From NCBI GenBank assembly GCA_035285025.1, contig JAYKHY010000029.1, positions 10,955-74,954 of the forward strand: a stretch of 64,000 bases of DNA. Direction: 5' to 3'. The position numbers and the translations under genes were made by a program. A model generated the notes under the pieces. It did not search any database. It was not told the DNA's origin and saw only the letters and a program-made list of their open reading frames with translations. Source of the DNA: Vampirovibrionales bacterium (GTDB lineage Bacteria; Cyanobacteriota; Vampirovibrionia; Vampirovibrionales; JAJTHC01). Shown here in pieces: positions 3,495 to 60,212 of the stretch (positions within the stretch are counted from its first letter, which is position 1; every line of letters starts with the position of its first letter).

Positions 3495-3509
3495 TTAGCG
3501 CGGGTGCGT

Positions 3510-6235: not shown

Positions 6236-6253
6236 GCATGAATAGGCGTGTGT

Positions 6254-19095: not shown

Positions 19096-19196
19096 ATCAG
19101 GTGGATCTCAACTCCGTAAGTAATTTTTTTGCTGTTTTGGTAAGTGGTTAGGCAAAAGAAAACGCGTTGTTGCAAAACGGTAAAAGCTTAATTGCG

Positions 19197-20960: not shown

Positions 20961-21019
20961 TGATGACTTTCCGGTTAAGGCGGGTTATGTACCACGGGTT
21001 TCCTGATTTTTATTTATCA

Positions 21020-22972: not shown

Positions 22973-23030
22973 CAGGGTCAACTTTCCTAAATTAAGGTTG
23001 TATGCGTTCAAAAAAATCAGTAAAATCATG

Positions 23031-34954: not shown

Positions 34955-35567
34955 CCGTTCGCATTAAGCTTAATTTTGGCGATTAAAAGACGATTAAATA
35001 GTTAACTTGCCAGCTTGTTTAACGTGCCGGCTTTACGCTCAGCGCCCGACGCTTTTGCCTGAAAAAACGCTTTTGCCTGGAAAAGCTTTTTTTCATAAAC
35101 ACTCCCGAGACTCTTTTCGGTTTTCTGTAGATCAAGAAGTTGTTTCTGACGTTTTAATAGCTCATGCGTGTTTTTTTTGCTTTGAAGATTCAGCTGTTGT
35201 AGCCGTTCGGCTTTATGCTACGGTAACCCTAGCTTATCTTTGTTTTGTGCAAAAAGCCCGAAATACTCATTGGTGTAAGTTTTACCCTGCTTTACATTAG
35301 CTTAATATAACGGCTCTGTTTGACACTTTTTTTTTTGAACTTCGTTGATCGAGATAAGACGTCTTGTCTTTATGCTTGATTTTTAATGAACGGGTTGCGC
35401 CAAACATTCGCTCGGTTTGCGCTTTCATCACGCTTAAATTTACTAATGAATCCATCAATTTTATTAGTTCAAAACATCAATGCGTTATCTGCTTAACTGG
35501 GATGTTAAGTGCTTTAAAGCGCTTTAGGCACTGTTACAGCTTTCTTTAGTTTTGGTTCTTATTCCTT

Positions 35568-37967
35568 ATGTCGTTAACGATTCACGCGCTGCCATTAGCC
35601 AGTCGCCCGCAAGCAAAAAAAACCGAAAAGTTGCATTTTGGTCAGGTTACCGAGGCTGCTGCGAACGTTCAAGCTTCTGCGGCTGGGCTCAACGCGGCAC
35701 CTGGGATTCCGCAAACGCCCATGACAGGGATTTGGGTTTCTGCGCAAGGTTACCACCCCGAATGGGAGAGCAAGCACGGCGTTAAAAAAATTGGTGGCTT
35801 AGCCGAGGTCAGTTATTCAATTCCGCAGCAGGTGCGCGCTGCGGGCGTCGATTTGCGGCCGCTGTTCCCGCTGTTTAAAGGCTTCGAAAAAATCGGCTTT
35901 GAGCCCACCGGCTTGCCGAGCGTAACGGTTAAAGGCCCAGATGGCAAAGACGAAGTCTACAATCTGCTCTGGAAAAACCAGAACGGCGTGATTCATTACG
36001 CCGTGAGCAGTGATAGCTTGAACGTGCTAGAAAACATCGACAAAGCCAAACCAATCGAGGTTACGCCCGAGCAGCTGCCAGAATCGGAGCGTAAAGCCCG
36101 TGGCTTAAATGGTCACGGCACAGCTCCTGGCACTTCGGGTAACACGCCTGTAGTTTATAGCTCGGGTAATACGCCTGTCGTTAGTGCCAGCTCGGGCAAT
36201 ACGCAGGCTGTTTTTGCAAAACAAGAAAAAATCATGGTTAACCCAGAGGTCATTAAGCTAAACCAGGCCATCGCCGAATTTTTGCCGATGCTGGATGTGG
36301 CTGGCAAGGCGCAGTCGTCCCAGCCCTGGCAAATTAAGGGCGGCAACAAAATGGTGATTGCCAATGACTGGATGAACGCCGAACTGTTGCCTGCGCTTGC
36401 GATTAAACACCCCGATTACAAAAATCAGGTGCGGAGCATTTTTTACACGCACAACACGTACGATTCTACGCAAACCAAATTGCAGCTTAAGCTGGCCGAA
36501 AAGCTCGGGATTGCAATACCAGAAGATTTAAAAAACGAGCATACGTATCTGCACGCGCCCGAACCGCCGGCCAACCCAGTGCTGGCGTGGTTCCAGGATA
36601 CCTTGGGCCTGCGCCCCGCGCCCCAGAAAAAAACCAACGATCTGGCCGAGTGGGTCAGTGCGCTGCGCATGGGTGTGCGGTACGCCGATGACGTTGTGAT
36701 TAACCAACGCTTTAAAGAGAGTATTTTAAGCGGCCGTTTTGGCGTAGATGATGAATTTAAGCGGTTTTTGGCGCAAAAAGAATCCGACGGCAACGTGTTT
36801 GATATGCAGCATGCCCTGAGCAAACTCGAAACGCCCGTTGCTAACAAGCATCTTGGCACCGAGGGTTATACGCCTCTGGAGGCCAGTACGCATAAAGCGT
36901 TGCTGGCAGAGCCGGCTCAAAAATTTGCGTCTAAGGCATCGACTTGCTCAAAGCCGGAGTCTGCAAGTGTGCATGCAACACGGCCTCAGCCCGTCTCGAT
37001 TTGGCAGCAAGCGCTGCACTGGGCGCAGACGCTACTGGCGAAGCTGGGGATGGGTAAAACGCCTGATCCTCTATTCACGACGGTTTCGCTACCGAAAGTT
37101 CAAAAAACGCGGCTGGCCGTAAACAGCCCAACGCTTTCGCCAGCCATGCAAAACTTAAAACAATTTAAGCAAACGAATAAGCTTGCGTTGCAGAAGCAAT
37201 TTGGCCTGCCGCAAAACCCGAACGCTGTATTGTACTCCACCACGCTGCGCTTTAGCGATATGCGTCAAAAAGGCTCGCTGCTGCTGATGCAAACGCTCGA
37301 AAAATTTATGACCGAGCACGAGGATGCGCAATTTATTCTGAACATTAAAGCGGGTGATAAAGCCAACACGCCGATACTAGAAGGCTTTATTCAAGCCTTG
37401 GAAAACAACCCGGTCATTCGAGACCGGGTCAAGTGCATTGGCTGGATTAGAGAGACTGAGCGCGCCCGGATTTTGGCCGGTGCCGATTGCATGATGACGC
37501 CCAGCGGCTACGAGCCCTACGGGTTAACGCAACTGGAGCCCATGGCCTACGGTGCCGTACCCATTGTAAGCAATCGTGACGGGTTATTCGCCAGCGTATA
37601 CGATCCTAGCGTGCTGCCAGCGTACAATCACCACCCCGGTGAGGCTAAAAAATCGGCCTACGGGCAAACCGGTTACATGGTCGATTCGGATATGCTGGCT
37701 TACATGCAGGCGCTTGATGGCGCGGGTCCCAGCGGACCTGACCCGCAAAATCCAGCGATACGCAACGCCAGCAAGGCGTTTTTAAAAACCCTAGAGCGTA
37801 CGTATCGCGATGCGCAATCGGGCGAGGCGCTCAAGGTAGCGAGCAATGCCCTGCGCTATGTGGCCGCAGAGCATAAACCGGATGCCATAACCGAAAAATA
37901 TTACGTGCCGTTGTTCAAGCACGTTCAAACCGCGCTCGAAGCACCCAAACTCGCGCAATCGGCTTAG
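35568..37967 (+). CDS. Glycogen/starch-synthase-like glycosyltransferase (GT5 family) with large insertions (799 aa)
   Basis: The N-terminal motif KKIGGLAEV corresponds to KTGGLADV of GlgA. The C-terminal motif SGYEPYGLTQLEPMAYGAVPIVSNRDGL corresponds to [22 protein letters not shown]. About 300 aa of extra sequence separates the two halves. Confidence 0.7.
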   Translation: MSLTIHALPLASRPQAKKTEKLHFGQVTEAAANVQASAAGLNAAPGIPQTPMTGIWVSAQGYHPEWESKHGVKKIGGLAEVSYSIPQQVRAAGVDLRPLFPLFKGFEKIGFEPTGLPSVTVKGPDGKDEVYNLLWKNQNGVIHYAVSSDSLNVLENIDKAKPIEVTPEQLPESERKARGLNGHGTAPGTSGNTPVVYSSGNTPVVSASSGNTQAVFAKQEKIMVNPEVIKLNQAIAEFLPMLDVAGKAQSSQPWQIKGGNKMVIANDWMNAELLPALAIKHPDYKNQVRSIFYTHNTYDSTQTKLQLKLAEKLGIAIPEDLKNEHTYLHAPEPPANPVLAWFQDTLGLRPAPQKKTNDLAEWVSALRMGVRYADDVVINQRFKESILSGRFGVDDEFKRFLAQKESDGNVFDMQHALSKLETPVANKHLGTEGYTPLEASTHKALLAEPAQKFASKASTCSKPESASVHATRPQPVSIWQQALHWAQTLLAKLGMGKTPDPLFTTVSLPKVQKTRLAVNSPTLSPAMQNLKQFKQTNKLALQKQFGLPQNPNAVLYSTTLRFSDMRQKGSLLLMQTLEKFMTEHEDAQFILNIKAGDKANTPILEGFIQALENNPVIRDRVKCIGWIRETERARILAGADCMMTPSGYEPYGLTQLEPMAYGAVPIVSNRDGLFASVYDPSVLPAYNHHPGEAKKSAYGQTGYMVDSDMLAYMQALDGAGPSGPDPQNPAIRNASKAFLKTLERTYRDAQSGEALKVASNALRYVAAEHKPDAITEKYYVPLFKHVQTALEAPKLAQSA

Positions 37968-38067
37968 CCGAAGACTTAAAACCGCACAATCTGACATTGA
38001 GGCGTTTTGATGCGCGTGATACCAACTTTTACCCCATTATTAAGCCTTTTAAACCTGAGAGACTGCC

Positions 38068-39303
38068 ATGCAAACGGGCCTGACACCCGTCCCTTATGTT
38101 CCTTATTCGGCTAATTCCATAGCCAGCCCCTGGGCTGCGCTGCCGAACATTAACGCGGCTCCCGTGCCTCCTTCAGGCACACAGGCACCGTGGCAAGCAC
38201 AAAATACCCCGGCAGAACCCCAAAAAACCGAAACGTTTAAATCGGATTCAATCAACACTGGAATTTCGCTTACAGACCCGATTACGCAAACCGAGCGCGG
38301 GATTAAAACCAAAATTTCGGAGTACGTGGTTCATCTTAACCCGCTGCAAAAGCTGGCTTTAAGCGCAAAAAACACGTTTATCGAGACGCCGAAATCCGTG
38401 GTAAAAGGCCTAAGCGGTAGCCCGGAGTTTGATTTTGGCGATAAAATGCGTGTTGCGCAGATTCCGTATTATCTGGGTGGCTTGGCGCTGGTGGGATCTT
38501 ATCTGGCACCGGGCGGTAAAAATGCGCTAAAAAACGCGTTAAAGCCAGCACTGGCCTGTGTTGGTTATATTGTAGGATTCCCGCTGGCCAACGCAACCGT
38601 AAACACGCTGTACAAGTTGCGCTATGGCGTAGATTTGGATATGCGTTATCACACCAGTAAAAATACGATTGCGGGCGTCTACGATAGCGCCGTGTTTGTG
38701 CGCGAAGATTTGCTTCCGCCTGATGACTTTGCCCGGATGCGCCGTAAAATGGGGATTCCCGAGGGGTTAGCCGCGCCTGACTGGGAGGTTAAACGCCAGC
38801 TCGATGGATTGATTCCTGCCGCAAAAGTAAGCAAATTATTACTCGGTAACGTCCTGGCCGCTGTGGGTGCGGGATATCTTGCGCAATTGCCGCACTGGCA
38901 GCAAATGCCCGCCATAATTCAGGGCGTTAAACTGGCGTTGGCAACGCCCGGGCTGAGCCCTTCGCAAAAGCTTCGTGATGTAGTTACGGTGTTAAAGCGG
39001 GCTGCTGTCCCCGTAGTCAGCCAGCTTAAGGCACCCAGGTGGCCTGGCGTGTTGGCCGCAGGGAGCGTGGCAGGTGCATTAGGGTATACTTTGCTGGGTA
39101 TGCACCGGGCCACCACGCGCAAGCAATATCAGACGCCTGGCAATGTTGCCAGCACGTTTAAGCCCTTAATGCCTAACACGCCTGCAGCAAGTCCGTTTGG
39201 CCTGCTGCCTGGTGTTACGAGCAACCTGCCTGCCATAAGTGCTTCCTTATGGCGCTCGCAGTCTGCGCCTCCAGAAGCGTTAATGACGCAAGGAGGCTAC
39301 TAG
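38068..39303 (+). CDS. Hypothetical membrane protein (411 aa) encoded between the GT5-like and GH13 genes
   Basis: It has several hydrophobic helices. Its stop lies 2 bp before the start of the next gene. Confidence 0.45.
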   Translation: MQTGLTPVPYVPYSANSIASPWAALPNINAAPVPPSGTQAPWQAQNTPAEPQKTETFKSDSINTGISLTDPITQTERGIKTKISEYVVHLNPLQKLALSAKNTFIETPKSVVKGLSGSPEFDFGDKMRVAQIPYYLGGLALVGSYLAPGGKNALKNALKPALACVGYIVGFPLANATVNTLYKLRYGVDLDMRYHTSKNTIAGVYDSAVFVREDLLPPDDFARMRRKMGIPEGLAAPDWEVKRQLDGLIPAAKVSKLLLGNVLAAVGAGYLAQLPHWQQMPAIIQGVKLALATPGLSPSQKLRDVVTVLKRAAVPVVSQLKAPRWPGVLAAGSVAGALGYTLLGMHRATTRKQYQTPGNVASTFKPLMPNTPAASPFGLLPGVTSNLPAISASLWRSQSAPPEALMTQGGY

Positions 39304-39305
39304 GC

Positions 39306-42300
39306 ATGCAGGCGCATCTGGCACAAAGTATTCCGGTTAGCCAATGGCCGCAGGCCTATGCGCAAAGCTTGGGCCAAAACGCCCAAACCTTATCGCGCGG
39401 CGTCGAGGGGCGCCCGGTTAACGATCCCGAACTTGCCGCATTAAGCGATAACTTAAAGCGCGGCAGCAGCCTGATGATCGCATCGTTAATATCGGGCGGG
39501 ACCATGGGTAAGCCTATGGCTGGGCGTGAGCTGCTTGGATTCGCGGGCTGGTACGCAGCCATGGCGGCAACGCCACGCCTACGAAACATCTTGACCCGCC
39601 TTACGACCGGGTTGCCCATGGGGCAAACGTTTGTGAGCACGCAAGGTGAGCGGCAGCGGGTTTTTAACGAATCCAGCCGAATTCCTCGGCATTTGTTACC
39701 GCAATCCATGCAGCAGCGCGTTGCGCGTCGTATTAACGATACGCTCGATAACGTTCAGGATTCGATGCAAAAAATTTCGGCTCAGGCCGAGACGGCTTGG
39801 CTGCTTGCGGCAGGGCCGTTAACGCCTGTTTTGGCAAGCGCATTGAATCACGTGACCGCGGAACCCATTGGTCGCGGGGTGCATGCGTTGCAAAAGGCAC
39901 TGCCTGCATCGCCCGAGATTCAACTTAAGCGTCTGGCGGGCGAAGGCACGAGCGATTTGACGCACTGGTGGCACGATTTTGATCGCGCACTGACGCGGGG
40001 CTTGAACCTGGGGTCGCTAAAGCACGGCCTGCAAAGTACGCCTCAACAATTGGCCCAACATTTGCATAGCCTCGGTCAGCACCCCGAGCAGCTCGCCCAC
40101 GCCAAAACACTTTTTGAAACCCAGCGCACCAATATTAATGCGATTGTATCCCAAAGTACCCCCTTGATAGAAAAATCGAATAGTGAAGCAGGGCGCGCAG
40201 CTGAGCATGCGATTAGCGGGGCGCGCAACAGCCTGCGCCGGTACCGGTATCTGCTGGAAAAACTCCCCACGCTTAGCAAGGCACAGATCGAGACCGCGCT
40301 CAATGGCAACACGCTAGCCGAATTCCAGAAAATGATAACCGCGGGCCGATTTAAAACCGCCATGGCGATGCTGGGCGATTGCCCCGATGCAACCAACACG
40401 CTTGCCGCCGCTTTACGCGGGCGTAAATTTAACGAAGCCTTCAAACGGTTTGGCGTGCATCCGGCCAAGCACCTGCAGCAACTTGCCGAAGCCTCGTTGC
40501 GGACGCGCTTATGGCGCACGCGGTATTTGGGTATGTTGGGCGGCGGCGTTGCCGCAAGTTGGGCGTTATATAGCGCGCTTGCGCCTAAAAAATCGCCACC
40601 GGCGCAACATCAGCACGTTACCAGTGCTAACGCGACCAACTTAAACCAGTTAACGCAAGATCCTAAAATGCAAAAAGCCTTGCACTCGGCGGCGCAAAAC
40701 GGCTCGTTAGATGTTGGCGTGCTCAGCCAGATGCCTGCGGCAGAAGGGTTTAAGTTGCTCCAGGCTAAGCCGATGGATACCGCGAATGCGCCCCGCTTCG
40801 GGCAGACTCCGTTTGTGCCAGGTATGGGCTCGTTTACGCCCGCAATGCCGCTTAACACTCAGCCGCGTTTAGCGTTTGCGCCGCCATTACAAGACGCGCG
40901 GCGCATCGCCGGTGCACCAGCCGCCGGATACGATGCGCCTATTCAAAACTATAATTCTGTCGCAGGTGCGTCAGCCGCCGGATACGATACGCCTTTTAAA
41001 AACACGCCCGCCATGCCCTTAAAACGCATGCTGCAAAAGAATCAGGCCCAAATTTACGCCATTAACATCCGGACGTTTGCCGCACAAGATAAAAACGGCG
41101 ACGGCAAGTTCGACTGGCAAATGGGCGAAACCGGTACGTTTCTCAACGCCATCAATCGGCTTGATGAACTGAAGGCGATGGGCATAAATACCATTCATTT
41201 GCTGCCGATTGTGGATTCTGCCGACATGCTGAAATACGGCAATGCAGGCAGCGTGTACGCCGCCGAAAACATGCACCGCGTGAACCCGCAGTTTGTTTCG
41301 CCCCAAGAGCAAGCCGCCTTTGCGGCGACGCATAACGGCCAAAAACTGACGCCAGAACTGGCGGCGCGCATGTTTGTTGATGCGTGCCACGCACGCGGGA
41401 TTGCGGTGATGGCCGATGTGCCCAGCTGCGCAGGGTTGGATTTGGCGATTGCCAAACCAGAGCTCATTGAGCTGGATAAGCAAGGGCATTTTAAAATCCC
41501 CAACAACTGGGTCGATATTTTGATGATGAAACCCGATGGGCCCGAAGTGCGGCAGTATTTTGACGGATTCTTCAAGTTAATGGCTAACGGGCTGGGCGTA
41601 GACGGGTTCCGGGCCGATGTTGCGCGCGCCCGAACCGATGATTTTTGGCGTTGGGCCATTGGCCAATACCCCAATCATGGTTGGTTGGGCGAGACGTATA
41701 CGGAAGAAACGTCCGCGATTAACAATATTCCAGCGGATCGCCCCGCCGAGTTGCTGAAGGCCGGATTTGACAATGTGTACGGGCAGTTTCACATCTTCCA
41801 CAACTTGCACAGCGCCGACGATTACATCCAGTACCTGACAAACGCGTACGAGCACGAGTTGTTACCTGCCGCCCAAGCTGGGCGAGGCGGTAAATCTTTA
41901 TTGGGCTCGTTTTACACGCACGACGATCACAGCTCGTTTAACGTAGGCGGCCCGTTATTGATGTTGCTGCAAGCGGGCTTAATGGCGAGCCAGCCGTGGA
42001 CGACGCCTTACGTGATTGATGGCCAGCAAACCGGCGACCCCAAAGACCTGGATATTTTTAACTTTGGCCCGCGCCCCGGTGGGAATAATCCAGAAATTGC
42101 TGCGATGATGCAGCACCTGTTTACGTTGCGAAATTCAACAGCGCCCAGCGCGCCTTTCATGACCAATGCTGCGCCAGGCGCTCCGGCTATTGGCGATGTC
42201 CTGCGCTCGGGAGCGTTTATTCCGTTGCCGGTTAGCAAGCCGCGCGACGGTGCAAACCAGATTATTGCCTTTGCGCGCCATTTAAACGGTAAAACCGTGT

Positions 42301-42554
42301 TGGTACTGGCCAATAAAGACCTGAACGCGCGCAGCGCTGGCAAGATTACCCTGCCCGGTGCCCTGCCGGGCATGGCCATGGCTCGCCTGACGCCAGCCTA
42401 CGGCCAGCCCAGTCAGATTAAACTGAACGAAGTGGGCGCGCTGAGCGTGGATTTGGCCCCGGGCACCTTCCATATGTTTGAAGTCGCGTTGCCTAATTTA
42501 CCCATTAACGCCGCAAATGCTGGCTTAAAAGCGTATCCTGGAGTGTTGGGGTAA
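39306..42554 (+). CDS. Membrane-anchored GH13 (alpha-amylase family) protein with an N-terminal domain of unknown function
   Basis: The C-terminal half carries GH13 regions: region II DGFRADVARA, region III WLGETYTEE, region IV FYTHDDHS, and an LPIVDS TIM-barrel start. A single predicted TM helix (YLGMLGGGVAASWALYSALAP) sits near residue 430. I chose the start at the Met at 39306, just after the upstream stop. Confidence 0.7.
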   Translation: MQAHLAQSIPVSQWPQAYAQSLGQNAQTLSRGVEGRPVNDPELAALSDNLKRGSSLMIASLISGGTMGKPMAGRELLGFAGWYAAMAATPRLRNILTRLTTGLPMGQTFVSTQGERQRVFNESSRIPRHLLPQSMQQRVARRINDTLDNVQDSMQKISAQAETAWLLAAGPLTPVLASALNHVTAEPIGRGVHALQKALPASPEIQLKRLAGEGTSDLTHWWHDFDRALTRGLNLGSLKHGLQSTPQQLAQHLHSLGQHPEQLAHAKTLFETQRTNINAIVSQSTPLIEKSNSEAGRAAEHAISGARNSLRRYRYLLEKLPTLSKAQIETALNGNTLAEFQKMITAGRFKTAMAMLGDCPDATNTLAAALRGRKFNEAFKRFGVHPAKHLQQLAEASLRTRLWRTRYLGMLGGGVAASWALYSALAPKKSPPAQHQHVTSANATNLNQLTQDPKMQKALHSAAQNGSLDVGVLSQMPAAEGFKLLQAKPMDTANAPRFGQTPFVPGMGSFTPAMPLNTQPRLAFAPPLQDARRIAGAPAAGYDAPIQNYNSVAGASAAGYDTPFKNTPAMPLKRMLQKNQAQIYAINIRTFAAQDKNGDGKFDWQMGETGTFLNAINRLDELKAMGINTIHLLPIVDSADMLKYGNAGSVYAAENMHRVNPQFVSPQEQAAFAATHNGQKLTPELAARMFVDACHARGIAVMADVPSCAGLDLAIAKPELIELDKQGHFKIPNNWVDILMMKPDGPEVRQYFDGFFKLMANGLGVDGFRADVARARTDDFWRWAIGQYPNHGWLGETYTEETSAINNIPADRPAELLKAGFDNVYGQFHIFHNLHSADDYIQYLTNAYEHELLPAAQAGRGGKSLLGSFYTHDDHSSFNVGGPLLMLLQAGLMASQPWTTPYVIDGQQTGDPKDLDIFNFGPRPGGNNPEIAAMMQHLFTLRNSTAPSAPFMTNAAPGAPAIGDVLRSGAFIPLPVSKPRDGANQIIAFARHLNGKTVLVLANKDLNARSAGKITLPGALPGMAMARLTPAYGQPSQIKLNEVGALSVDLAPGTFHMFEVALPNLPINAANAGLKAYPGVLG

Positions 42555-42667
42555 GTATGGGCTATCAAGGGTGTTGGTATTTAAAACCAAAACAGCTTGC
42601 CAAAGGGGGCAAGCTGCTGGTTTTGACTATCAAGCTGGTTTTGACTATCAAGAAGTTTTTAAGTTTA

Positions 42668-43189
42668 TTAGCCTTTTTTAATAGGCCTCAAGATGTTTTG
42701 ACCTTTTGCTACCCGGAGTCCTGTTTTAATAGGGTTCAAGATGTCTTTACCTACCTGTTGAGCTACCTCCGAGAGTTGGTTGAAGGTTTGACGACCTGTT
42801 TGATCAGCTTGCAAAGCCAGATATTTACTGTTGTAACGAAGTTGATTCAAACCGGACATCAATGTCTGGGCTGTATAGCTATCTGCAAAAGCTCTTCGGG
42901 TGGCAATATCGGCCGGAATGATTTTTTGGAGCCAAGTGTCTCTGACCACTTTAGTCAGTTCTGGAGCCGTTTTTGGGGAGGCTTGAGCTTCTTGTTTCAA
43001 GCCGACCCAAGCTTTGTTTGCAATACCCCCCAAATCGCTCCCAATACCAGACGTCGCTGTGATAGGAGCGCTTGTCGGTAAATGTAAAGGCGCTTTAAGT
43101 ACCTTGACAACATCTCCCCCGCCATAAAGCGCCGTCCGCGCAGCTAAATCTAGAGAAAAGCCTTTAACCAATAAATTTTTGAAATTCAT
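42668..43189 (-). CDS. Hypothetical Ala/Lys/Gln-rich helical protein (173 aa) encoded antisense between the two GH13-like genes
   Basis: Its composition is more protein-like than the overlapping plus-strand ORF. The C-terminus is encoded by imperfect 28-bp direct repeats (ILNPIK/ILRPIK). Confidence 0.35.
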   Translation of the reverse strand: MNFKNLLVKGFSLDLAARTALYGGGDVVKVLKAPLHLPTSAPITATSGIGSDLGGIANKAWVGLKQEAQASPKTAPELTKVVRDTWLQKIIPADIATRRAFADSYTAQTLMSGLNQLRYNSKYLALQADQTGRQTFNQLSEVAQQVGKDILNPIKTGLRVAKGQNILRPIKKG

Positions 43190-43365
43190 CTCAAAATCTC
43201 CCCTTCAAATTGATTCAACAAACTAGCCCTAACGTGATCTTATTTAACCGGTTCTCTAATGTATGGATAAAACCATTTGGCTTTTTTTGTGCATGACCTA
43301 ATGTTTTAAAAACAGACTTTAAAGCCTTTGCACTTTTTTTGCTTCAGTCGTTTTAAAGAAACACG

Positions 43366-46300
43366 ATGCGTATTCAGCCCAACACGCCCCTAAAAACGCC
43401 CCAAAAACCAAGCTTCTCCGGATACCGCCCGCACCCGGAGGCCCCTGGCCATGCGCAGATTTATCATCCTGACGCGATTAGCGCTAAAACCGTGAGCGTC
43501 ACTATCCGCGAGCCGCAAGGCAACAACACGCAAGCAGACACCGAAAAAACCTACGCCCTGGAGCAAACCCCCGACAAGCGCCAGTGGGTACTAAAAACCC
43601 CGGTTAAGGCTGGCAGCCATTACGCCTTGATGATTGACGGCAAGCGCCACCTGGATGCCTTGCATACACAGCTTTTAACCAGCGACAGCGTTTCCCGCGC
43701 AGGCGCGGGCGCCATCGCGTCTCAAGCATTGCCGTTTAATGTTATCGATAATCCGATTCGCCCAGCGCTGTTGCGCTCGCCCGGCAGCATGCTCGATATT
43801 TTCCAGCATAGCCTTCGGCAGTCTGGTAATGGGTCTGCGGGTACTCCAGGTACTCGTATCACAACCCACTTTAATCAAAAACAGGGCTCGGTGGGTAAGG
43901 CGTTAAATACGCTGCTTAAACAGCCTAATATGGATGCGGCGAAAACCGTTTTGCTCAAGCCGTTTAGCCAGGGCGGCTACTGGATTGAGAACCCGTACCA
44001 GCTAGACCCCCAGAGTTTTGCCAACGAGCCCGAATTTGACGCGTTTTTAGACACGTTGCTCGCCAACAATCAGCAGCCTGCCATGGATTTAGCGTTGGTC
44101 AACCAGAATATGACGGGCGGGCAGTATCAGGCCAACCTGATTCATGGCGCGCGCAGCCCGTTTTGGGAATGGTTCCGAGATAATCAAGCGGAGCGTTCGC
44201 TTGAATCCCCGCTGCCGCGCGTGCTGCAAGAAGGCTTTAAACACGGCATATTGCCTACCAAGTATGATCCAAGCACAGGGCATCGTGATCAAATTGACTA
44301 CGAGCGTTTTCAAGTGCATCTCTCCAATGCGCCGAGCCAGTCTAACTACCAACCTCTTCAGCAAACCTGGCTGAAAATTACGCCCACGCCCTTGTCTGAT
44401 GATCACGCTTACGGCCCGGAAGACAGCGTGCATCCGTACGAGTTTCCGGTTGATGCCAACCTGGCGCAGGAAAAACTCGCCGAGGCCCAAGCGCGTGGCC
44501 TGAAGCCCAACGACGAAGCTTACAAACGCCTTATGTTGGATTGGCCGGCTACCCGTTCTGAGGGGGGGGCTCGCCCGGCGCAAACTATTGATGCGCAATG
44601 CCGCGATGATGCTTTAGCCAAATGGAACGGGAATGTTGATGTTCCTTCGCTGAATCCTGATAATCCGCAAGTACGTGCTTATTTACAGGGTGCCGTCACG
44701 CACTGGGTGGCGCGTGTTGTTAATCATCAACGCGCGGCACTGGCCCAGCAACTGCCCAATGACTTAACCCCCGCAACGCTGTTGGCATTTGAACAACAAC
44801 GCTTTAAGGGCCTGCCCGTATTGCCCGATGCCGCGCTAAATCAGGCGCTTACGCCGCCAAAGCCCCAGGGCGAACCGGCGCAAGTACTCACGCAAAAGCT
44901 AACGCATCAGTACGCGTTAAGCGCTTTGCCGTTGCCGAGAACGCTCAACCATTGGCTTTCTGCAGTTAGCCTGCCAGAATTTAACAAAGGGCTTCAAAAC
45001 ACGGCACCTGGCGGCTGGTTTGCAGGCGAGGGTTTTGCGCACGCGCTGCAAAATAAGCTCGAGGCTGCTACCCGGCAGCTCCCGCAGCCGGAGCAGGCAA
45101 AGCTGTCTAGCGATCTGGTTCAGCTGGTGATTTTACAAAAACTTGCCCCCAAGCTGTATTTGCAATTGCTAACGGGCTCGCCCGATGCGAACGGAGCGGG
45201 TGAGCGCCTGCTAAAGCATTTGCCGCAAGTTGTGTTAAAAAGTGATCCCGTCACCGTGGCACGCTTGCTGCCAGAAACTTTGACCCGTCAACTTAATGAG
45301 CTGCCACCAGAAACGGTTGCGCATTGGCTTACAGAAGCGCTTGAGCCCCTTGACCCGGTTAAGTTGAGCGTGGCCGATGCATTAATTAATCACCACGAGC
45401 TTGGGCCTAATTTAAGGCTTGATGCCGCGAAAGACGTTGCCGACTTTGATCCGGTTTACGCCGCCCCAACCCCCGAGGCACGAGAAAAAGCGCTCGATAA
45501 AAGCATGCAACATGTCGTTGGCTTCTGGAACGAACTGCTTGCGCCAGCAAAGGCGATTTATCCTGCCTTGCGTATCGGTGCCGAGGTCACAGATATCCAT
45601 TTATTGGGCGACGGTAAGCCAGAGTTAATGAAAAAAAGCTACGAGACCCTGATGCAGGCGTTTGATAGCATGCCTGAAATGGACCATGGCTTTAGTAAAC
45701 TGCACGAGCTGGTGCATTACGCCCAACGACCCTTTGAGGCGGGCAATAGCCAGGTTGAACCGTTTGAAGGGAACGCCAAAGCTAACTTCTGGAATGAGCT
45801 TTCTGCGCGGGCGCATAAAATTCCGCTGAAAACCCAGCACAACTATCAAACCTTGGGCAGCAGCCACGATTACGCCACGGTGACGCACAACCTGCTGCAT
45901 AACCCGTTACTGTTTTTTGCCAACGATGAACCCTACCGCGGCGTTAAAGACGAGTTTTCGGATGCCCGCCTGGAGCTGAGCAGCAAGGCCGTGTTTGAGC
46001 CCGTTCGCGCGCAATTAAAACAAGCGGGCATCGAAAATCCCGGCGACGCGCTGTACAAACTTGAGCAGCACTTGGCCAAGGTTAACAATCCGCTGGTTCA
46101 AGGCGTTTTAGATGGCAAAGCCAAGGAAGCCAGCAATATGCTTGGCCCCACCCCTCGCGATTTAAAAGCCGCGTCGCTTAAGGCTGTTGCGCAAGTGGCC
46201 TCGGCGCAAGCGCTGGGTTTACCAAACGACGATGCTAAAGCTGCCCTAATCCAGGCCTATGAGCGCGTATTGCTCGAGCCCAGCGCCGCCAAGGCCAAGC

Positions 46301-47178
46301 GCGCGGTGCTGAATAACGCTTTAGTCAGCTATTTTAAAGCCAACAAAACGCCAGAAGCACAGCAGCAGCAACTTTTTAAAGCGATTCTGGATGCCAGCTT
46401 GCCCGAAAACGCCAACGATAGCCGTGCTAGCCAACGCTTTGGCTACTTGCCGCTCGAGGCCGCCTGGGATCAGGTTTTAAAACGCCTGCCCCAAACATTT
46501 GCGCTTAACGGGTTGCGCGGAGCCGACCTTAAACAGGCCCTTATGACGCGCACGCTGCAAACCACGCAGCTACCCCAAAAATTCGAACGCCTGGTCGCCA
46601 TGCAGGTGGCCCTGCCGGGGCAACCTTCGGTGTATTTGCACGATTTATTTGCCCCCAGTGGCGGCGAGACTGATAACAACGCCTTTGTCCAAAACCGGAA
46701 CGAAATTTTTGTAACCACAGGCCGTGGTGATACGCCAGCACAAACACAGATGAAACAAAAAACGCTGGCCTTGCTCGCGTTGCGCAAAACTTTACCCGTC
46801 CTGAACGACGGGCTGGTGCGTGACGTTGCGCCAGAAAAAGCCCAGCAAGTGGCTTTAAATCAGGCAGGTGTTATGCCGATTGTCCGTGATAACGGGCGCG
46901 ATCAAGCGATTGTGCTAATTAACACCGGAAAACCCGCCGCCATCGATTGGTCGAACCGTGTGGGCGGCCTTGAGACCTACGGTCACCCTAGCGCAACGCA
47001 ACCCGTGGCTCGAAACTTTAAGCTGGACTTAAGCGCCCTGGATATGCCCGTGGGGACGCAATACCAGTCAATCGATTCGGGTGAGCGTTACGAGCTTAAC
47101 GCACAGCATCAGTTGGTGCATAGCAAAACCAAGCAGGGGATCGACATCGAAACGGTCAAGGCGCTTAAGCGCCTGTAA
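43366..47178 (+). CDS. Giant CBM48-like + GH13-like (alpha-amylase superfamily) protein, 1270 aa; catalytic status uncertain
   Basis: The N-terminal ~100 aa resemble CBM48/E-set domains (YHPDAISAKTVSVTIREP…GSHYALMIDGKRH). A DVPSLNPDNPQVRAYLQGAVTHW motif is typical of GH13 between regions I and II, and LGSSHD resembles region IV. I could not find a clear GFRxD nucleophile motif. Confidence 0.55.
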   Translation: MRIQPNTPLKTPQKPSFSGYRPHPEAPGHAQIYHPDAISAKTVSVTIREPQGNNTQADTEKTYALEQTPDKRQWVLKTPVKAGSHYALMIDGKRHLDALHTQLLTSDSVSRAGAGAIASQALPFNVIDNPIRPALLRSPGSMLDIFQHSLRQSGNGSAGTPGTRITTHFNQKQGSVGKALNTLLKQPNMDAAKTVLLKPFSQGGYWIENPYQLDPQSFANEPEFDAFLDTLLANNQQPAMDLALVNQNMTGGQYQANLIHGARSPFWEWFRDNQAERSLESPLPRVLQEGFKHGILPTKYDPSTGHRDQIDYERFQVHLSNAPSQSNYQPLQQTWLKITPTPLSDDHAYGPEDSVHPYEFPVDANLAQEKLAEAQARGLKPNDEAYKRLMLDWPATRSEGGARPAQTIDAQCRDDALAKWNGNVDVPSLNPDNPQVRAYLQGAVTHWVARVVNHQRAALAQQLPNDLTPATLLAFEQQRFKGLPVLPDAALNQALTPPKPQGEPAQVLTQKLTHQYALSALPLPRTLNHWLSAVSLPEFNKGLQNTAPGGWFAGEGFAHALQNKLEAATRQLPQPEQAKLSSDLVQLVILQKLAPKLYLQLLTGSPDANGAGERLLKHLPQVVLKSDPVTVARLLPETLTRQLNELPPETVAHWLTEALEPLDPVKLSVADALINHHELGPNLRLDAAKDVADFDPVYAAPTPEAREKALDKSMQHVVGFWNELLAPAKAIYPALRIGAEVTDIHLLGDGKPELMKKSYETLMQAFDSMPEMDHGFSKLHELVHYAQRPFEAGNSQVEPFEGNAKANFWNELSARAHKIPLKTQHNYQTLGSSHDYATVTHNLLHNPLLFFANDEPYRGVKDEFSDARLELSSKAVFEPVRAQLKQAGIENPGDALYKLEQHLAKVNNPLVQGVLDGKAKEASNMLGPTPRDLKAASLKAVAQVASAQALGLPNDDAKAALIQAYERVLLEPSAAKAKRAVLNNALVSYFKANKTPEAQQQQLFKAILDASLPENANDSRASQRFGYLPLEAAWDQVLKRLPQTFALNGLRGADLKQALMTRTLQTTQLPQKFERLVAMQVALPGQPSVYLHDLFAPSGGETDNNAFVQNRNEIFVTTGRGDTPAQTQMKQKTLALLALRKTLPVLNDGLVRDVAPEKAQQVALNQAGVMPIVRDNGRDQAIVLINTGKPAAIDWSNRVGGLETYGHPSATQPVARNFKLDLSALDMPVGTQYQSIDSGERYELNAQHQLVHSKTKQGIDIETVKALKRL

Positions 47179-47376: not shown

Positions 47377-48231
47377 TTAGCTCACCGAAGGGTTAAAAGC
47401 CTTAGGAATCACAGGCGCTTTTTCGTTCATAGGCGTCGGCGGCGTGCGATCGACATAAAGCTTCGGCGTATTGCCCGTTAACTTATCTAATTTAGAGAGC
47501 CGTTTTTCAATTTTGTCCATTAACATAGTTAAACGGTTCATTACGCCAACCCCTTGGCGCTGCCGGGGCGGCCGTTGCGGTGGCATTGCGCACCGCGAAT
47601 GCGATTCAAATCCGCCCTGAGGACCAGGTGGATAAGCAGCCGGGGGCATCATAGGCGGTTGCATTGCACCCATGTTACCAAAGCCGCCGGGGCCATAACT
47701 GCCCGAAAAATTTGGGATAGGCGATCCGGCTGGTGCCGGGAAACCCTGAGGTGACATGCCCTGGGGTTGTGCGCCGCCAAAGGTTTCTTGCAGGTACTGG
47801 TTAAACAGCGCTTGCATCGGTAAACCTTGCGAGGCCTGGCCTGCCTGTGGCACCGGAAACCCAGAAGAATTTGGCACATTACCCGTCGGTTGCGATCCGA
47901 AATACTGGTTGGAAAAAAACATTCCGGTCGGGAGCTGAGCTTGCCCGTTATTTTGTGCCCCAAACTGGTGCATGGCCGATAATCCGTTTTCGCCATTGCT
48001 AAAATTAATGCTGCCCTGCGCGTTAAAGCTGGGGTTAATATTCAGTTGCCCGGATAATTGCCCAATATTAATGGTGTTACCTAACGGCGAACTGAACACG
48101 CCTGGTGCTTGTTGCGGCGTGCCAAAACCCGCACCGGGGGTTTGCATATTAAACGTGGGCTGAAACGCCTGGTTATAAACTACCGGCGCGTTCATGGTGC
48201 CGTAATTCGTAAAATTGTTCGTGTAACTCAT
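47377..48231 (-). CDS. Q/N/G/P-rich low-complexity (prion-like) protein with a basic helical C-terminus
   Basis: I chose the start at the Met at 48231, which is preceded by GAGGAG 9 nt upstream; the ORF track extends it to 48339. The first 230 aa are NQ/GF/PQ-rich, and the C-terminus has a KIEKRLSKLDKL helix. Confidence 0.5.
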   Translation of the reverse strand: MSYTNNFTNYGTMNAPVVYNQAFQPTFNMQTPGAGFGTPQQAPGVFSSPLGNTINIGQLSGQLNINPSFNAQGSINFSNGENGLSAMHQFGAQNNGQAQLPTGMFFSNQYFGSQPTGNVPNSSGFPVPQAGQASQGLPMQALFNQYLQETFGGAQPQGMSPQGFPAPAGSPIPNFSGSYGPGGFGNMGAMQPPMMPPAAYPPGPQGGFESHSRCAMPPQRPPRQRQGVGVMNRLTMLMDKIEKRLSKLDKLTGNTPKLYVDRTPPTPMNEKAPVIPKAFNPSVS

Positions 48232-49247
48232 TGCCCCAATCTCCTCATAAGTGCTATTTGTTTTAAATAGCAATACCTTGCTTATTTGCCTAAACAGTGC
48301 GCGCCCAAAATCAGGCAGCGCCCCATGGCAAGCTGACACGACGTATTTTTGCTTCCCACTTCAATCTTCTTAAAAACCAAGTTCTAAACAAAAAATTCGA
48401 AAAAAATAAATTGAACTTGGATGCATTAAAAGAATTGTTTTTAATTTAAAAAGTTTAGTTTTTCTTGATTCTGGCGTCCATTCGATTCTTGAACAAGAGC
48501 GCTAATACCGCGTCACAGCATCGATTAAAGATTATTTTAAATTCGTTTATCAAAAATGTTAATAACGCGTCTAGTCTTCTCGTTATAATTTACTGCGATG
48601 ATTTTTTATATTTTTTCTCGCTTTATTCTCTCAATTTTTATTCTCTCAAATTTTTCGGTCTCTAGTCTTTCTCCATGATATTTTTTTCTCTAGTCTCTCT
48701 CTGTTCGTGCTCACTCGTTAACGTTTTTAATGGCTCTTATCTATTCATTCAGGTGAATGCTTTATATCCCTTTTGATACGTAAATAAAAACAGCCTAAAT
48801 TGCGTTCTTGCTTTAAAATTGCAAGCTTAAGCTTTGTTTTAGGAGTGTAAATAAAATAAAAACACGTTTTTTAGTAGCCAAATGGCCCGAGTTTTTATCT
48901 GGGTTACCTTTGAGGTTGAATAAAACAGCCGATGCGGCTTAACGCACGTTTGTCGGTTGACAGGCGTTTATGCTACTTTAAAAGTATTTAAATTAAGGGT
49001 TATAATCTAAACCTGCAAAACAAGGCGCTGGCCTTGATGTTTTAGATGATTTAATCAAATTTTCTGGGTTCGCGCTGATTATTCAATGGTATGTCAACTG
49101 TTTCGATAACCGTTTGGGCCGATTTGTTAAATCAATAGCATCACTAAAATGCATATCTTGCAGATATGTTTGTACGCTAAAAAACAGCCTTAATTGTAAA
49201 AATTTAGTAAGACGTTTTACGCTCGTTTTTCTTTAGGAGACGTTTCT

Positions 49248-50735
49248 GTGGGTGTACCCGTTTCAATGCCGGTTCAATCGTCCGAAGATACCGCAACGTT
49301 AGACGCGCTTGCGCAGCGTGCCAGCCATGGCGGGGCCATTGGCGCAGGCGCTAGCCCTAAGCTAATGAGCCTTCCGCAATTACTGATGCTGGCTGTCGGG
49401 ATTATCGGCTTTCAGTTTGCCTGGAGCACCCAAATTGCGCTCTCTAGTCGTGTGCTCGAGCCCTTGGGCGCGGACCCGTTTCTGTTTGGACTCATCTGGT
49501 GTGCGGGCCCTATTACCGGCATGGTTGTGGCACCGCTGGTGGGGATGTGGAGCGACCACACCCTTACGCCGCTGGGTAAGCGCTGGCCGTATGTGCTTGC
49601 GGGCGCTGTTTTGGGCGCGATTGCAATGGTATTGTTCCCGCAATCGCCCAATTTGTGGGTTGCTGCCATCATGATCTGGCTGATTGACGCCTTTATTAAC
49701 ACGGCCCAAGGGCCGTATCGCGCGTTGGTACCCGACATGGTGCCGCGTGCACAGCAAAGTATTGCAAACAGTTATCTGAATTTTGGGGTTGGTACGGGTA
49801 ACGTGATTGCCATGGGCTTTGCGCCGCTTGCGCTCGCGATGCTTGGGCAAGAAATCCCGATTCAGTCCCAGTATGTGATTTCGGCGGTGGTGCTTGCGGG
49901 TATTACGATTTTAACCGCGCTGTTTGTCAAGGAAAAGCCGGCGTCCGCACAAGCGTCGGTTGACACCATTGGCGCCGAGCCTGCGCCTGCCATTACGGCG
50001 GGGATTGATGCGGATAAAGCCATCGGCAAGGCAACGCCCGGCGTGGCGCAAATGTTTAAAAACTTTGCCGCCGCCAGTCCCGAGATTCATAAAATTTCGG
50101 CGGTGCAGTTCTTTACATGGGTCGCCTTGATGGGCATGTTTATTTATTTAACACCTTATGTCACACATCACGTGTTTAAAGTGCCCGATTTGACTCGTCC
50201 GGAGTTGTTTAGTGCAGCTCAGATGGCTGGCTTTAAAACGCTCGAAAAAACCGCAACCAACACAACGCAACAGGCGTTTGCTGCCTTTAACCTAGTGTGC
50301 TTACTCCTCTCGTTACCGCTGGGGTATTTAACCACCAAGTTCGGGAAAAAGCCGGTGCTCAGCTTTGCCCTGCTTACTATGGCCGCCGGCTTCCTGACGG
50401 CGCCGTTTATCAGCACGCCGCTTCAGGTTATTGCCATGCTGGCGTGTGCCGGGGTGGCCTGGGCAACAACGCTGTCAATCCCGTTTTCAATCTTGTGTGA
50501 TCATATGCCTAAAGGCCAAGAAGGCAGCATTATGGGCATGTTTAACGTATTTGTGGCCGCGCCGCAGCTGATTAGCGCAATTGCCGTTGGCTGGGTTATT
50601 AATCAAATGCCGGTGGCTTTGCCGGTGGGCTATACCCACGCCTGGTGGCTGCCGTTTACGGTGGGCACGGTAAGCCTTATTATTGCTGTGGGCGTTTTGC
50701 AAACCATTAAAGAACATAAACCCCTCCGCGCTTAG
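49248..50735 (+). CDS. MFS transporter, GPH/sucrose-transporter-like family
   Basis: It has twelve predicted TM segments. The start is a GTG 8 nt after AGGAGA. A D-x-x-x-R-type loop occurs after TM2, and the central loop is long and hydrophilic. Confidence 0.7.
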   Translation: MGVPVSMPVQSSEDTATLDALAQRASHGGAIGAGASPKLMSLPQLLMLAVGIIGFQFAWSTQIALSSRVLEPLGADPFLFGLIWCAGPITGMVVAPLVGMWSDHTLTPLGKRWPYVLAGAVLGAIAMVLFPQSPNLWVAAIMIWLIDAFINTAQGPYRALVPDMVPRAQQSIANSYLNFGVGTGNVIAMGFAPLALAMLGQEIPIQSQYVISAVVLAGITILTALFVKEKPASAQASVDTIGAEPAPAITAGIDADKAIGKATPGVAQMFKNFAAASPEIHKISAVQFFTWVALMGMFIYLTPYVTHHVFKVPDLTRPELFSAAQMAGFKTLEKTATNTTQQAFAAFNLVCLLLSLPLGYLTTKFGKKPVLSFALLTMAAGFLTAPFISTPLQVIAMLACAGVAWATTLSIPFSILCDHMPKGQEGSIMGMFNVFVAAPQLISAIAVGWVINQMPVALPVGYTHAWWLPFTVGTVSLIIAVGVLQTIKEHKPLRA

Positions 50736-52703: not shown

Positions 52704-53768
52704 TTACAGGCGGCCCGTATCCCACTGTGAACGGATGTTGGCGGGTTCGAGCAAGCGATTGAGCTCATCGCGTGTTGGCAGCTCGCTGAGGCCCTGCTGG
52801 CGGTACAAGTAAAGCCCCGCCGTAATAACACCCCGTTGCGCGCATGCCAGCAAGCTTTGGCGTTGCGCCAGGCCCGCAATCAGGCCGCCGTTAAACGCGT
52901 CGCCCGCGCCAATGGCGTCCAGTGAGCCAATGGCGGGCGGTAAGGATTCTGGCCAATAGGCTGGAATCGTCATGGTTTCGCCCCTAAAACGAATATAGCA
53001 CCCTTCGTCTGCCGCTTTTAATATCACCAGCGGAACGCCCTGATAACTTAAATAATCCAGTACCTGCTCGGGTTGGGTTAAGTTACACAGCGGCCTGCAA
53101 TCGCCGGGGGTGCTTAGGCTTAAAACGTCGGTCAGTGGTAAAATCTGGGCCATCGCTTCCAGGTACTTCGAGGTTTTTTGCCATAAATCCGGGCGGTAAT
53201 TCGGATCAAACACCGTGGTCCAGCCAGCCGCGCGAGCGTGTTTAAAGCCGTGCAACACGGTTTTACGCGCAGATTCCGAAATTGCCATCGAGATGCCCGA
53301 GGCAAAAAGAATGCCCGGAGTTTTAGGGCTAAATGCGTTTTCGGGCAGGTCATCTGGGCACAACAGCGCGCTGGCACTGTTTTTACGGTAATACACAAAT
53401 GCCGAGACATCGGCATTGCCCCGCGCACGAATCACCAAACCGGTGCTGCACCCCTGCGGCCCCTGGGTTTCCATGAAACGCTGCGTTGGCCAGCTGATGT
53501 TTTCTTTGGCTAATAAATCGGCAATGCCTTGCCCAAACGGATCCGCGGCAAGTCGCGTCACCAAGCTGGTAGGAATCGTTTGTCGCGCTACCGCAACTGC
53601 AGTCGTAAGCACATCGCCGCTGTAGCGCTTGGTAAATTCAAATTCGCTCTGCACGCTTTCTCGAGACAAAAGCTCGGTGAGTGGCTCACCGATGATGACC
53701 ACAGGCATGGGCAACGCGTGCATTTTGTTCGCACCCGGCTTGGGCCCCTCATTTGGCCTCTCGTACAT
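52704..53768 (-). CDS. PfkB-family carbohydrate kinase (ribokinase/KdgK-like)
   Basis: The C-terminal DAIGAGDAFNGGLIAGL motif (PfkB signature 2) and an N-terminal GG-containing region are present. Confidence 0.8.
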   Translation of the reverse strand: MYERPNEGPKPGANKMHALPMPVVIIGEPLTELLSRESVQSEFEFTKRYSGDVLTTAVAVARQTIPTSLVTRLAADPFGQGIADLLAKENISWPTQRFMETQGPQGCSTGLVIRARGNADVSAFVYYRKNSASALLCPDDLPENAFSPKTPGILFASGISMAISESARKTVLHGFKHARAAGWTTVFDPNYRPDLWQKTSKYLEAMAQILPLTDVLSLSTPGDCRPLCNLTQPEQVLDYLSYQGVPLVILKAADEGCYIRFRGETMTIPAYWPESLPPAIGSLDAIGAGDAFNGGLIAGLAQRQSLLACAQRGVITAGLYLYRQQGLSELPTRDELNRLLEPANIRSQWDTGRL

Positions 53769-59954: not shown

Positions 59955-60212
59955 ATGCCTTTGGTTTAGAACTATAACTTACTTATTAGTTTAAAAGTTG
60001 TGTTGCCTAGGACTGCGATGCAATAGCAGAGACGTCTGTATTAGGTGTATGATCTTATTCTTGAACGCATCCAAAAATAACGCTTACAAAGTCCTCGGCG
60101 TAACTCGTGGCATAATAAGGTTTGCAGACGATTGTTAATTAAATGGCTCTCTGGCAGGGGCCGCGCTTAAAGTTTTAAATGGTTGATTCGGTTTTTTAAC
60201 GTTTGGGTTGTT

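Follow-up and report, generated by a model that had tools for sequence, protein, structure and literature searches.

The 64-kb stretch of a Vampirovibrionales metagenome-assembled genome (MAG) analysed here (the window, whose positions give all coordinates below) carries a cluster of genes for alpha-glucan-active enzymes, putative membrane anchors and a sugar transporter. Four large open reading frames (ORFs) follow one another on the + strand: a encodes a glycogen-synthase-like protein of family GT5, b a helical protein, c a b-like helical module (cN) joined to a GH13 domain (GH13c), and d a second, very large GH13 protein; a gene for a major facilitator superfamily (MFS) symporter comes after them. 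An earlier note on this DNA had described a to d as a locus of oversized, very divergent alpha-glucan enzymes. The four ORFs and the motifs it quoted are indeed where it had placed them, and the description holds, although the hidden Markov model (HMM) searches it had proposed as a check gave a mixed outcome: a passes its Pfam thresholds as a GT5 protein, whereas c and d of the window miss the PF00128 cutoff and are assigned to GH13 through profile comparisons and through orthologues that do pass it. The locus had also been drawn too short, and its boundary should be moved out to the MFS gene at 49248-50735. Gene neighbourhoods were compared between the window and 12 further lineages (13 in total): Vampirovibrio chlorellavorus (two strains, counted as one), a Vampirovibrio sp., five other NCBI MAG assemblies, which are Vampirovibrionales wherever a name is shown, and five contigs from metagenomes or read archives. 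Lineages are cited by locus label where needed, L006/L008 being V. chlorellavorus and L003 assembly GCA_029866025.1.

Protein a (35568-37967, + strand, 799 residues) is predicted to be a soluble glucosyltransferase of the GT5 glycogen/starch-synthase type with its catalytic residues retained. It scores 37 bits against Pfam Glycos_transf_1 (cutoff 26.4) and gives a short match to Glyco_transf_5 at 32.9 bits (cutoff 22.7); its top NCBIfam match, TIGR02095 glgA, reaches 105 bits, far under the cutoff of 328, and its nearest solved structure is Escherichia coli GlgA (3d1j, 1.5e-11). Both GT5 signature blocks are present, as had been claimed, with KKIGGLAEV at residues 73-81 and EPYGLTQLEPMAYGAVPIV at residues 649-667. 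In an alignment of the window protein, E. coli GlgA and three a-type homologues, a shares with GlgA the KxGGL element (K74, equivalent to K15, and G76, G77 and L78, all invariant), the HN and AD motifs of the N-domain (likewise invariant), the equivalents of R300 and K305 (R561 and K568) and the EPxGLxQL block with the equivalent of E377 (E649), the last three residues being invariant across the a family. The place of GlgA His161, which is reportedly important from mutagenesis of the E. coli enzyme, is taken in a by N266; the site reads ANDW in the window and L003, and AHDW in V. chlorellavorus. Local identity to GlgA is only 26-32%, and a is 67% longer than the E. coli protein (799 against 477 residues), close to the 70% first estimated. 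The added length is made up of an N-terminal extension, three or four insertions within and between both Rossmann domains, including one of about 90 residues in the N-domain and one of about 90 residues between the domains, and a C-terminal extension; some of the inserted sequence is of low complexity, such as GNTPVV repeats. No hydrophobic segment was found in a by hydropathy or on the Hessa scale. A further difference from GlgA is that a appears to be co-transcribed with membrane-anchor genes and not with glgC/glgB. Word-based homologue searches with a returned only a itself, which is also found on one Logan contig and in NCBI, where the identical entry bears the name 'MAG: glycosyltransferase [Vampirovibrionales bacterium]'; homologues standing in the same cluster measure 789 residues in L003 and 980-981 residues in V. 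chlorellavorus.

Protein b (38068-39303, + strand) is a helical protein of 411 residues with four moderately hydrophobic segments, and the N-terminal half of c (cN, 39306-40583, + strand) is a similar helical module that ends in its most transmembrane (TM)-like helix by hydropathy (LGMLGGGVAASWALYSALA, 40527-40583, + strand). Profile-profile comparison (hhalign) joins the two at 95.7% probability (E 9e-9), making b a paralogue of cN. Their homologous core of about 140 residues consists of two hydrophobic helices, a conserved hydrophilic stretch (RYGVDL...DLL...IP) and a helix with a GN.LAAVGAGY motif. No Pfam or NCBIfam match was obtained for b and no database match for cN, a Pfam search at E<=5 with all members of the b family gave nothing consistent, and neither b nor cN could be matched to a transporter or synthase family. 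When 1.84 billion representatives were searched exhaustively with the profile (E<=0.001), 148 clusters of the family at 50% identity were recovered, most of them of 320-460 residues and a minority, cN-like, of 600-1286 residues; none of ten long members tested has a Pfam domain. One cluster is annotated as Gastranaerophilales, and the family has so far been traced only to Vampirovibrionia. Using the b family, a scan of metagenome contigs gave no confirmed locus.

The earlier note had called b a membrane protein, and this is in part borne out: the four hydrophobic segments of b and cN stand at conserved positions in the family, with conserved polar residues (Asn) inside the hydrophobic helices, but only the last segment is clearly TM-like. 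Across the lineages tested this final helix scores 0.1-4.4 on the summed Hessa scale (0.1 in L016), for which the helices of the MFS protein give -1.4 to 1.9 and the soluble proteins a and d at least 9.9. Because the final helix is TM-like and the other segments are intermediate on this scale, membrane anchoring by b and cN is likely, and a membrane association of b and c is plausible.

Protein c had been reported as a 1101-residue protein, which is the product of its longest ORF (39249-42554, + strand). Its start is most likely the ATG at 39306, giving 1082 residues: this codon has an AAGGAGG 9 nt upstream and agrees with the Logan gene call, and the alignment with homologues begins there. 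The start lies 2 nt past the stop of b and has its own ribosome-binding site, so b and c would be translationally coupled. Behind cN, a P/Q/A-rich linker of low complexity and about 150 residues (40584-41018, + strand) leads to GH13c, the catalytic GH13 domain with its C-terminal beta domain (41019-42554, + strand). The GH13 regions II to IV that had been placed behind a TM-like helix are indeed there: conserved sequence region (CSR)-II is GVDGFRADVARA (41595-41630, + strand, catalytic Asp), CSR-III is WLGETY (41682-41699, + strand, catalytic Glu) and CSR-IV is YTHDD (41913-41927, + strand, catalytic Asp). The window protein reaches only 18.3 bits on PF00128 (cutoff 22), whereas its orthologues reach 31.4 (V. 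chlorellavorus) and 47.6 (L011). Alone, it matches 4gkl among GH13 chains of the PDB at 4e-8; a profile of seven lineages matches the same structure, Thermotoga neapolitana AmyB, at 1.7e-31 over the entire catalytic domain, followed by 3dhu (5e-25), maltosyltransferase 1gju (1e-20) and GlgE (4e-14). The triad is invariant in these seven lineages and aligned with that of 4gkl (CSR-II GVDG[FI]R[AV]DVAR, CSR-III E[TS]Y, CSR-IV THDD). Protein c is a helical hydrophobic module fused to an AmyB-like GH13 domain with an intact triad.

AmyB (4gkl) is the type member of subfamily GH13_48 (Marecek, Terrapon & Janecek 2024, PMC11239784), and GH13c seems to be a divergent GH13 domain near this subfamily, some of whose signatures fit while others do not. 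CSR-II, III and IV align. The residue before the nucleophile, which in GH13_48 is Cys in 81% of members and otherwise Ala, Val or Leu, is Ala or Val in the c family, a minority state in GH13_48/49; of the GQ that ends CSR-VII in the subfamily, the window and L003 keep GQ and the others have GF, GW or similar; and the L-[DN] that ends CSR-V was not recognised in the segment of c aligned to it (signatures from PMC11239784). GH13c differs from AmyB above all in being fused or translationally coupled to a hydrophobic helical protein of 400-1200 residues, and the domain survey of GH13_48 lists no fusion or coupling of that kind (PMC11239784). A TreY/TreZ-type trehalose pathway, to which a weak TreZ match on c (E 6.7e-7, 28 bits) might have pointed, is unsupported, because no maltooligosyl-trehalose synthase structure stands among the PDB matches of d.

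Protein d (43366-47178, + strand, 1270 residues) is best described, from profile matches and conserved residues, as a neopullulanase-like GH13 protein that appears to have retained the nucleophile, the acid/base and the transition-state Asp. Its conserved regions are CSR-I MDLALVNQN (44083-44109), CSR-II NLRLDAAKD (45409-45435), CSR-III IGAEVTD (45574-45594, assigned by position and pattern only) and CSR-IV GSSHDY (45856-45873), all on the + strand. The last three are the GH13 motifs that had been pointed out earlier; the CBM48-like N-terminus claimed with them is not borne out, since five N-termini of the family give no match to CBM_48 (PF02922) or any other Pfam family at E<=10. The window protein has no Pfam match and only marginal PDB matches, and two of its orthologues reach 25.9 and 26.4 bits on PF00128 (cutoff 22). 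A profile of seven sequences matches neopullulanase 2z1k (2e-13) and also the Nostoc enzyme NPDE (2wc7), maltogenic amylase 1sma and cyclomaltodextrinase; with the insertions deleted in silico, it matches 2wc7 at 7.6e-17, RLDAAKD aligning with CSR-II of 2z1k and SHDY with CSR-IV of 2wc7. In seven family members D686, E740 and D835 are invariant, as are residues of CSR-I and CSR-VII. Comparison of a c-GH13 profile with a d profile (hhalign) gave 4.7% probability and is uninformative, and c and d are therefore each linked to GH13 separately.

The best matches of d are thus enzymes of GH13_20 and its relatives, neopullulanase, cyclomaltodextrinase, maltogenic amylase and NPDE (2z1k, 1j0h, 1sma, 2wc7), with which it shares a 'SPYWDWF'-like segment after CSR-I, an LNxxNPEV segment and CSR-II, IV and VII. 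It differs from them in length (1270 residues against 475-590), in lacking an N-domain or carbohydrate-binding module recognisable by HMM, and in its CSR-V, which reads VPSLN (V-A-L-M-N as family consensus) and does not match MPKLN, the signature of the neopullulanase subfamily GH13_20 in Janecek's classification. Enzymes of this group, to which d is likened, are cytoplasmic and act on imported dextrins. The extra length of d includes insertions of about 150 residues in domain B, about 230 residues between the NPxVR helix and CSR-II, and about 200 residues from CSR-IV to CSR-VII; they hold invariant residues and are therefore regarded as conserved domains and not as junk. Sequence search gave two full-length homologues (47% and 25% identity) and a genome scan gave more, so that full-length d proteins of 1256-1450 residues are now counted in nine lineages. 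On the low-coverage ENA contig L022 the d homologue (5286-9736, - strand) is present as two genes of 353 and 1087 residues, either a true split or a sequencing frameshift.

The product of the MFS gene (49248-50735, + strand; Pfam MFS_1 and MFS_2) has about 12 strongly hydrophobic helices. It scores 78 bits against TIGR01301 (GPH_sucrose), far below the cutoff of 511, and its structure matches are Arabidopsis SUC1 (8bb6, 4e-20) and SLC45A4 (8e-9). With plant SUT/SUC and SLC45 symporters as its nearest matches, it is therefore placed among the sucrose/maltose-type glycoside:H+ symporters of the SUT/GPH and SLC45 type, a family assignment drawn from SUC1, SLC45A4 and TIGR01301 together. An orthologue of this gene directly adjoins d in L003, L005, L006/L008, L013, L018 and L020; in the window the two are held apart by a Q/N-rich ORF and an AT-rich spacer. 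Such an AT-rich region and a Q/N-rich protein after d had been described earlier, and both are present, as a Q/N/P-rich ORF of 320 residues (47377-48339, - strand) and a spacer of about 900 bp at 37.5% GC (48340-49247). No homologue of the ORF occurs in the related loci; it was accordingly rejected as a part of the system, and ORF and spacer together resemble a lineage-specific insertion between d and the MFS gene.

Two transcription units are suggested by the non-coding features. A bidirectional, GC-rich, terminator-like hairpin with T-runs on both strands (42591-42618), 37 nt past the stop of c, is the top-scoring site of its kind on both strands and is likely the terminator of an a-b-c operon, which would make a-b-c one transcription unit and d another. 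Upstream of a lies an intergenic region of 613 bp (34955-35567), presumably the promoter/operator region, with a GC content below that of the flanking genes. The AT-rich leader noted earlier corresponds to this region, but its description as hairpin-rich does not stand: its RNA folds no better than shuffled sequences (z = -0.42) and has no Rfam match at E<=1, on which grounds a riboswitch or structured leader was rejected. About 480 bp upstream of a, the region contains two copies of an 18-nt tandem direct repeat (ACGCTTTTGCCTGRAAAA, 35049-35084), overlapped by a 15-nt inverted repeat, the two repeats together occupying 35049-35095. With palindromes at 35352-35369 and 35507-35524, they could be operator sites. 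Between c and d lies an ORF of 173 residues (42668-43189, - strand), which shares the hairpin with c and overlaps a + strand ORF at 42557-43081. It had been presented as a small helical protein encoded antisense, yet it is antisense to no gene; its GC content at third codon positions is 0.40 against 0.55-0.63 in neighbouring genes, and neither a family match nor a homologue in the related loci was obtained. The ORF is an orphan gene or else non-coding, and, with a homologue in no relative, it was rejected as a part of the system.

The cluster is lineage-specific and conserved across the Vampirovibrionia (Melainabacteria). The order b-cN-GH13c is found, with the genes adjacent, in 12 of the 12 lineages in which the region is covered, the window included. 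In five of them (window, L003, L009, L013, L020) cN and GH13c are fused, and in seven (V. chlorellavorus, L011, L016, L018, L019, L021, L022) they are separate genes that overlap or abut, each with a stand-alone cN gene homologous to the N-terminal half of c. The earlier note had named giant ORFs produced by frameshift or assembly error as the outcome that would undo it; lengths are conserved across independent assemblies of distant relatives, which rules out such an artefact, and the fused form recurs independently, at similar length, in four lineages besides the window, so that the two states reflect a real fusion or fission event. Gene d adjoins this triad in eight lineages, the window included, and in one more it lies 17 kb away on the same contig; in L005, a truncated b adjoins d and the MFS gene. 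The SUT-type MFS gene stands beside d in seven lineages, the window included, and L018 carries all five genes on one strand, as b-cN-GH13c-d-MFS. In V. chlorellavorus the cluster is made up of the window's six components and no others, between unrelated housekeeping genes. Other neighbours vary: MalQ is encoded within 10 kb in three lineages, and a phosphorylase (two lineages), a GH57 enzyme (one) and an ABC sugar-binding protein (two) also occur. The last are SBP_bac_1 proteins that adjoin or lie near the b-c genes in L009 (2681-4015) and L018 (702-1907), with no permease genes seen beside them. In L003 a Gly/Ala-rich protein of 1124 residues with hydrophobic stretches (1373-4747, - strand) directly adjoins the c homologue; it has no Pfam match and no counterpart in the window.

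No canonical glycogen gene was found beside the cluster: tblastn of the window with E. coli GlgB, GlgC, GlgP and GlgX gave no match, nor did MalQ, GH57 and phosphorylase proteins from related loci; the sole match of this query set was the GlgA-like part of a, and a Pfam survey of the window gives a further basis for the absence of nearby glg genes. The earlier claim of their absence is thus sustained for the neighbourhood but does not extend beyond it, the genome of V. chlorellavorus having such families. Its carbohydrate-active enzymes (CAZymes) include three GT5, two GT35, seven GH13, one GH77, two GH57 and two CBM48 (Soo et al. 2015, Table S5), and the cluster therefore coexists in this species with canonical glycogen genes. 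As in V. chlorellavorus, the cluster of the window is probably additional to canonical glycogen genes located elsewhere.

The conserved core, in which two GH13 enzymes are combined with a pair of paralogous anchor proteins and a sucrose/maltose-type symporter, does not amount to a system for synthesis. Because the GT5 gene stands in the cluster in only three of the 13 lineages, and MalQ, phosphorylase, GH57 and sugar-binding proteins are its neighbours elsewhere, uptake, catabolism and remodelling are indicated more than synthesis; from the membrane-associated synthesis or remodelling system proposed at first, remodelling and membrane association thus remain plausible, and synthesis as the core function does not. 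Nor does export, also proposed, find support: signal peptides are absent from a, c and d, and also from the stand-alone GH13c proteins of three lineages, whose sequences open with the P/Q-rich linker; this favours the cytoplasmic face. We thus propose a membrane-tethered module for the uptake of alpha-glucosides or maltodextrins and the remodelling of alpha-glucan, with the GT5 protein a as an optional link to storage-glucan synthesis, an account that in our judgement is about as likely to be right as wrong. The symporter would import an alpha-glucoside such as maltose, maltodextrin or sucrose. Proteins b and cN may form a hetero-oligomeric anchor in the inner membrane that would hold GH13c, by its long P/Q-rich tether, at the cytoplasmic face, where GH13c and the large soluble d would cleave or disproportionate alpha-1,4 chains, and possibly alpha-1,6 linkages too. 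Where a is co-transcribed, as it seems to be here, it would extend alpha-1,4-glucan from nucleotide-glucose, and the module could both feed and remodel storage glucan, working beside, and not in place of, the ordinary glycogen genes located elsewhere.

Several observations weigh against this proposal. The sequences do not reveal the substrate, the linkage specificity or which way the flux runs. The presence of the long GT5 gene in only the window, L003 and V. chlorellavorus makes the functional link of a to b, c and d weaker than that of the others. Active-site substitutions could alter or lower activity in all three enzymes: Asn at the His161 position of a, Gln in place of the CSR-I His in window d, and a CSR-I ending in Pro-Ser (D[VIL]PS) in the c family, where the majority of GH13 enzymes have Asn-His. 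Apart from the final helix, the hydrophobicity of the three other segments in b and cN is only marginal (Hessa about 2.5 to 10), leaving insertion and topology uncertain, and should the final helix of cN be the sole membrane span, the fused GH13 domain would come to lie in the periplasm, in conflict with a cytoplasmic location. The AlphaFold2 model of b is all-helical with a predicted local distance difference test score (pLDDT) of 48.9, and that of the d N-terminus is poor (pLDDT 40.6), with strands at 43-97 of pLDDT below 50.

The cluster could instead serve ordinary cytoplasmic glycogen turnover by fast-evolving paralogues specific to the lineage, a being an extra glycogen synthase, c an amylase or glucanotransferase, d an enzyme of debranching or neopullulanase type, b and cN helical proteins that bind or scaffold granules, and the MFS gene only loosely linked. 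Every catalytic domain does come from families used in glycogen metabolism, signal peptides are absent, and the Hessa values of most hydrophobic segments in b and cN are marginal (3-8). Against this, every lineage has a TM-like final helix in both b and cN, and without a link to transport it is difficult to account for the pairing of d with the MFS gene, which recurs in seven lineages and in L018 is co-linear with b-cN-GH13c. We regard this explanation as possible but rather unlikely.

Fungal alpha-1,3-glucan synthases Ags1/Mok1 combine GH13, GT5 and multiple TM segments in one polypeptide, and the window operon also unites GH13, GT5 and membrane parts, a likeness that concerns the types of part alone. 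A split synthase and exporter of this kind is conceivable, in which cytoplasmic a would make the chains, b and cN would serve as a conduit through the membrane, and the tethered GH13c, perhaps with d, would trim or join chains outside, yielding a capsular or periplasmic alpha-glucan. The apparent co-transcription of a, b and c in the window, the clustering of GT5, b/cN and GH13 genes in L003 and V. chlorellavorus too, the conserved Asn inside the hydrophobic helices of b and cN, and the order of a TM-like helix and a long P/Q-rich linker before GH13, which is typical of surface-tethered enzymes, would all be in keeping with it. However, the window parts are separate proteins, the GT5 gene is missing from the cluster in 10 of the 13 lineages, whereas symporter, MalQ and phosphorylase are common neighbours, stand-alone GH13c and d have no signal peptide, and b and cN resemble no transporter or synthase family that we could find; we consider this architecture improbable. 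Least credible of all, and in our view very improbable indeed, is a role as predation effectors, oversized enzymes delivered non-classically, for example by a type IV secretion system, into algal prey to mobilise starch whose products the symporter would import: V. chlorellavorus, an epibiotic predator of starch-storing Chlorella for which injection of hydrolytic enzymes by such a system has been proposed (Soo et al. 2015), has the complete cluster, and long disordered extensions are present in the proteins while Sec signals are absent, but a member of the b/cN family occurs in Gastranaerophilales, a gut lineage not known as an algal predator, the hydrophobic anchor argues for retention of c, and no secretion signal or adjoining secretion gene was identified, the pilus/T2SS-like genes at 17854-23909 being 12 kb away and unlinked to the cluster in relatives.

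The b/cN proteins might be a new membrane-protein family obligately coupled to GH13 and possibly, together with it, a new alpha-glucan membrane machine, which may take the form of a translocase for glucan or maltodextrin that incorporates a hydrolase or transferase, or of a bacterial multi-subunit counterpart of the fungal GH13-GT5-TM synthase; this is a speculative suggestion to which we attach little probability. Should b and cN turn out to be a new glucan-handling membrane component, the cluster would gain in interest. As matters stand, the catalytic families are already known but their combination has not been described, and the b/cN family, its obligate coupling or fusion with GH13 and the giant-insertion d family appear undescribed: no description of the cluster was found in literature on Vampirovibrio glycogen and on starch synthase or GT5 in Melainabacteria, and the CAZyme families of V. 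chlorellavorus were merely counted (Soo et al. 2015).

The Vampirovibrionia are the closest non-photosynthetic relatives of cyanobacteria, and a dedicated, undescribed alpha-glucan module shared by this class bears on the evolution of glycogen and starch metabolism there and on the way in which starch-storing algae serve as food for predators like V. chlorellavorus. Routine annotation misses the enzymes of the module: d and b are entered as 'hypothetical protein' in NCBI, and c and d of the window fall under Pfam thresholds. The fusion of cN with GH13 leads to a direct, testable hypothesis of physical coupling, and a and d exemplify GT5 and GH13 catalytic cores that tolerate insertions of hundreds of residues.

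Elsewhere in the window, a type IV pilus/type II secretion system (T2SS)-like set (17854-23909, - strand) encodes a PilC-like T2SSF protein, a T2SSE ATPase with an MshEN domain, a secretin with an STN domain and a 292-residue protein without Pfam match. Two genes for sugar-related proteins, neither of them linked to the cluster in relatives, encode a pfkB-family sugar kinase (52704-53768, - strand) and a MalK/UgpC-type ATPase of sugar ABC transporters (ABC_tran and TOBE_2; 60183-61286, + strand). ORFs of 198-597 residues without a Pfam match at E<=1e-4 lie at 10-1152, 1501-3294, 6254-7717, 11180-12019, 59178-59954 and 62268-62864. The remainder of the window is ordinary chromosome, with genes for amino-acid, purine, pantothenate and lipid metabolism and one tRNA-Arg.

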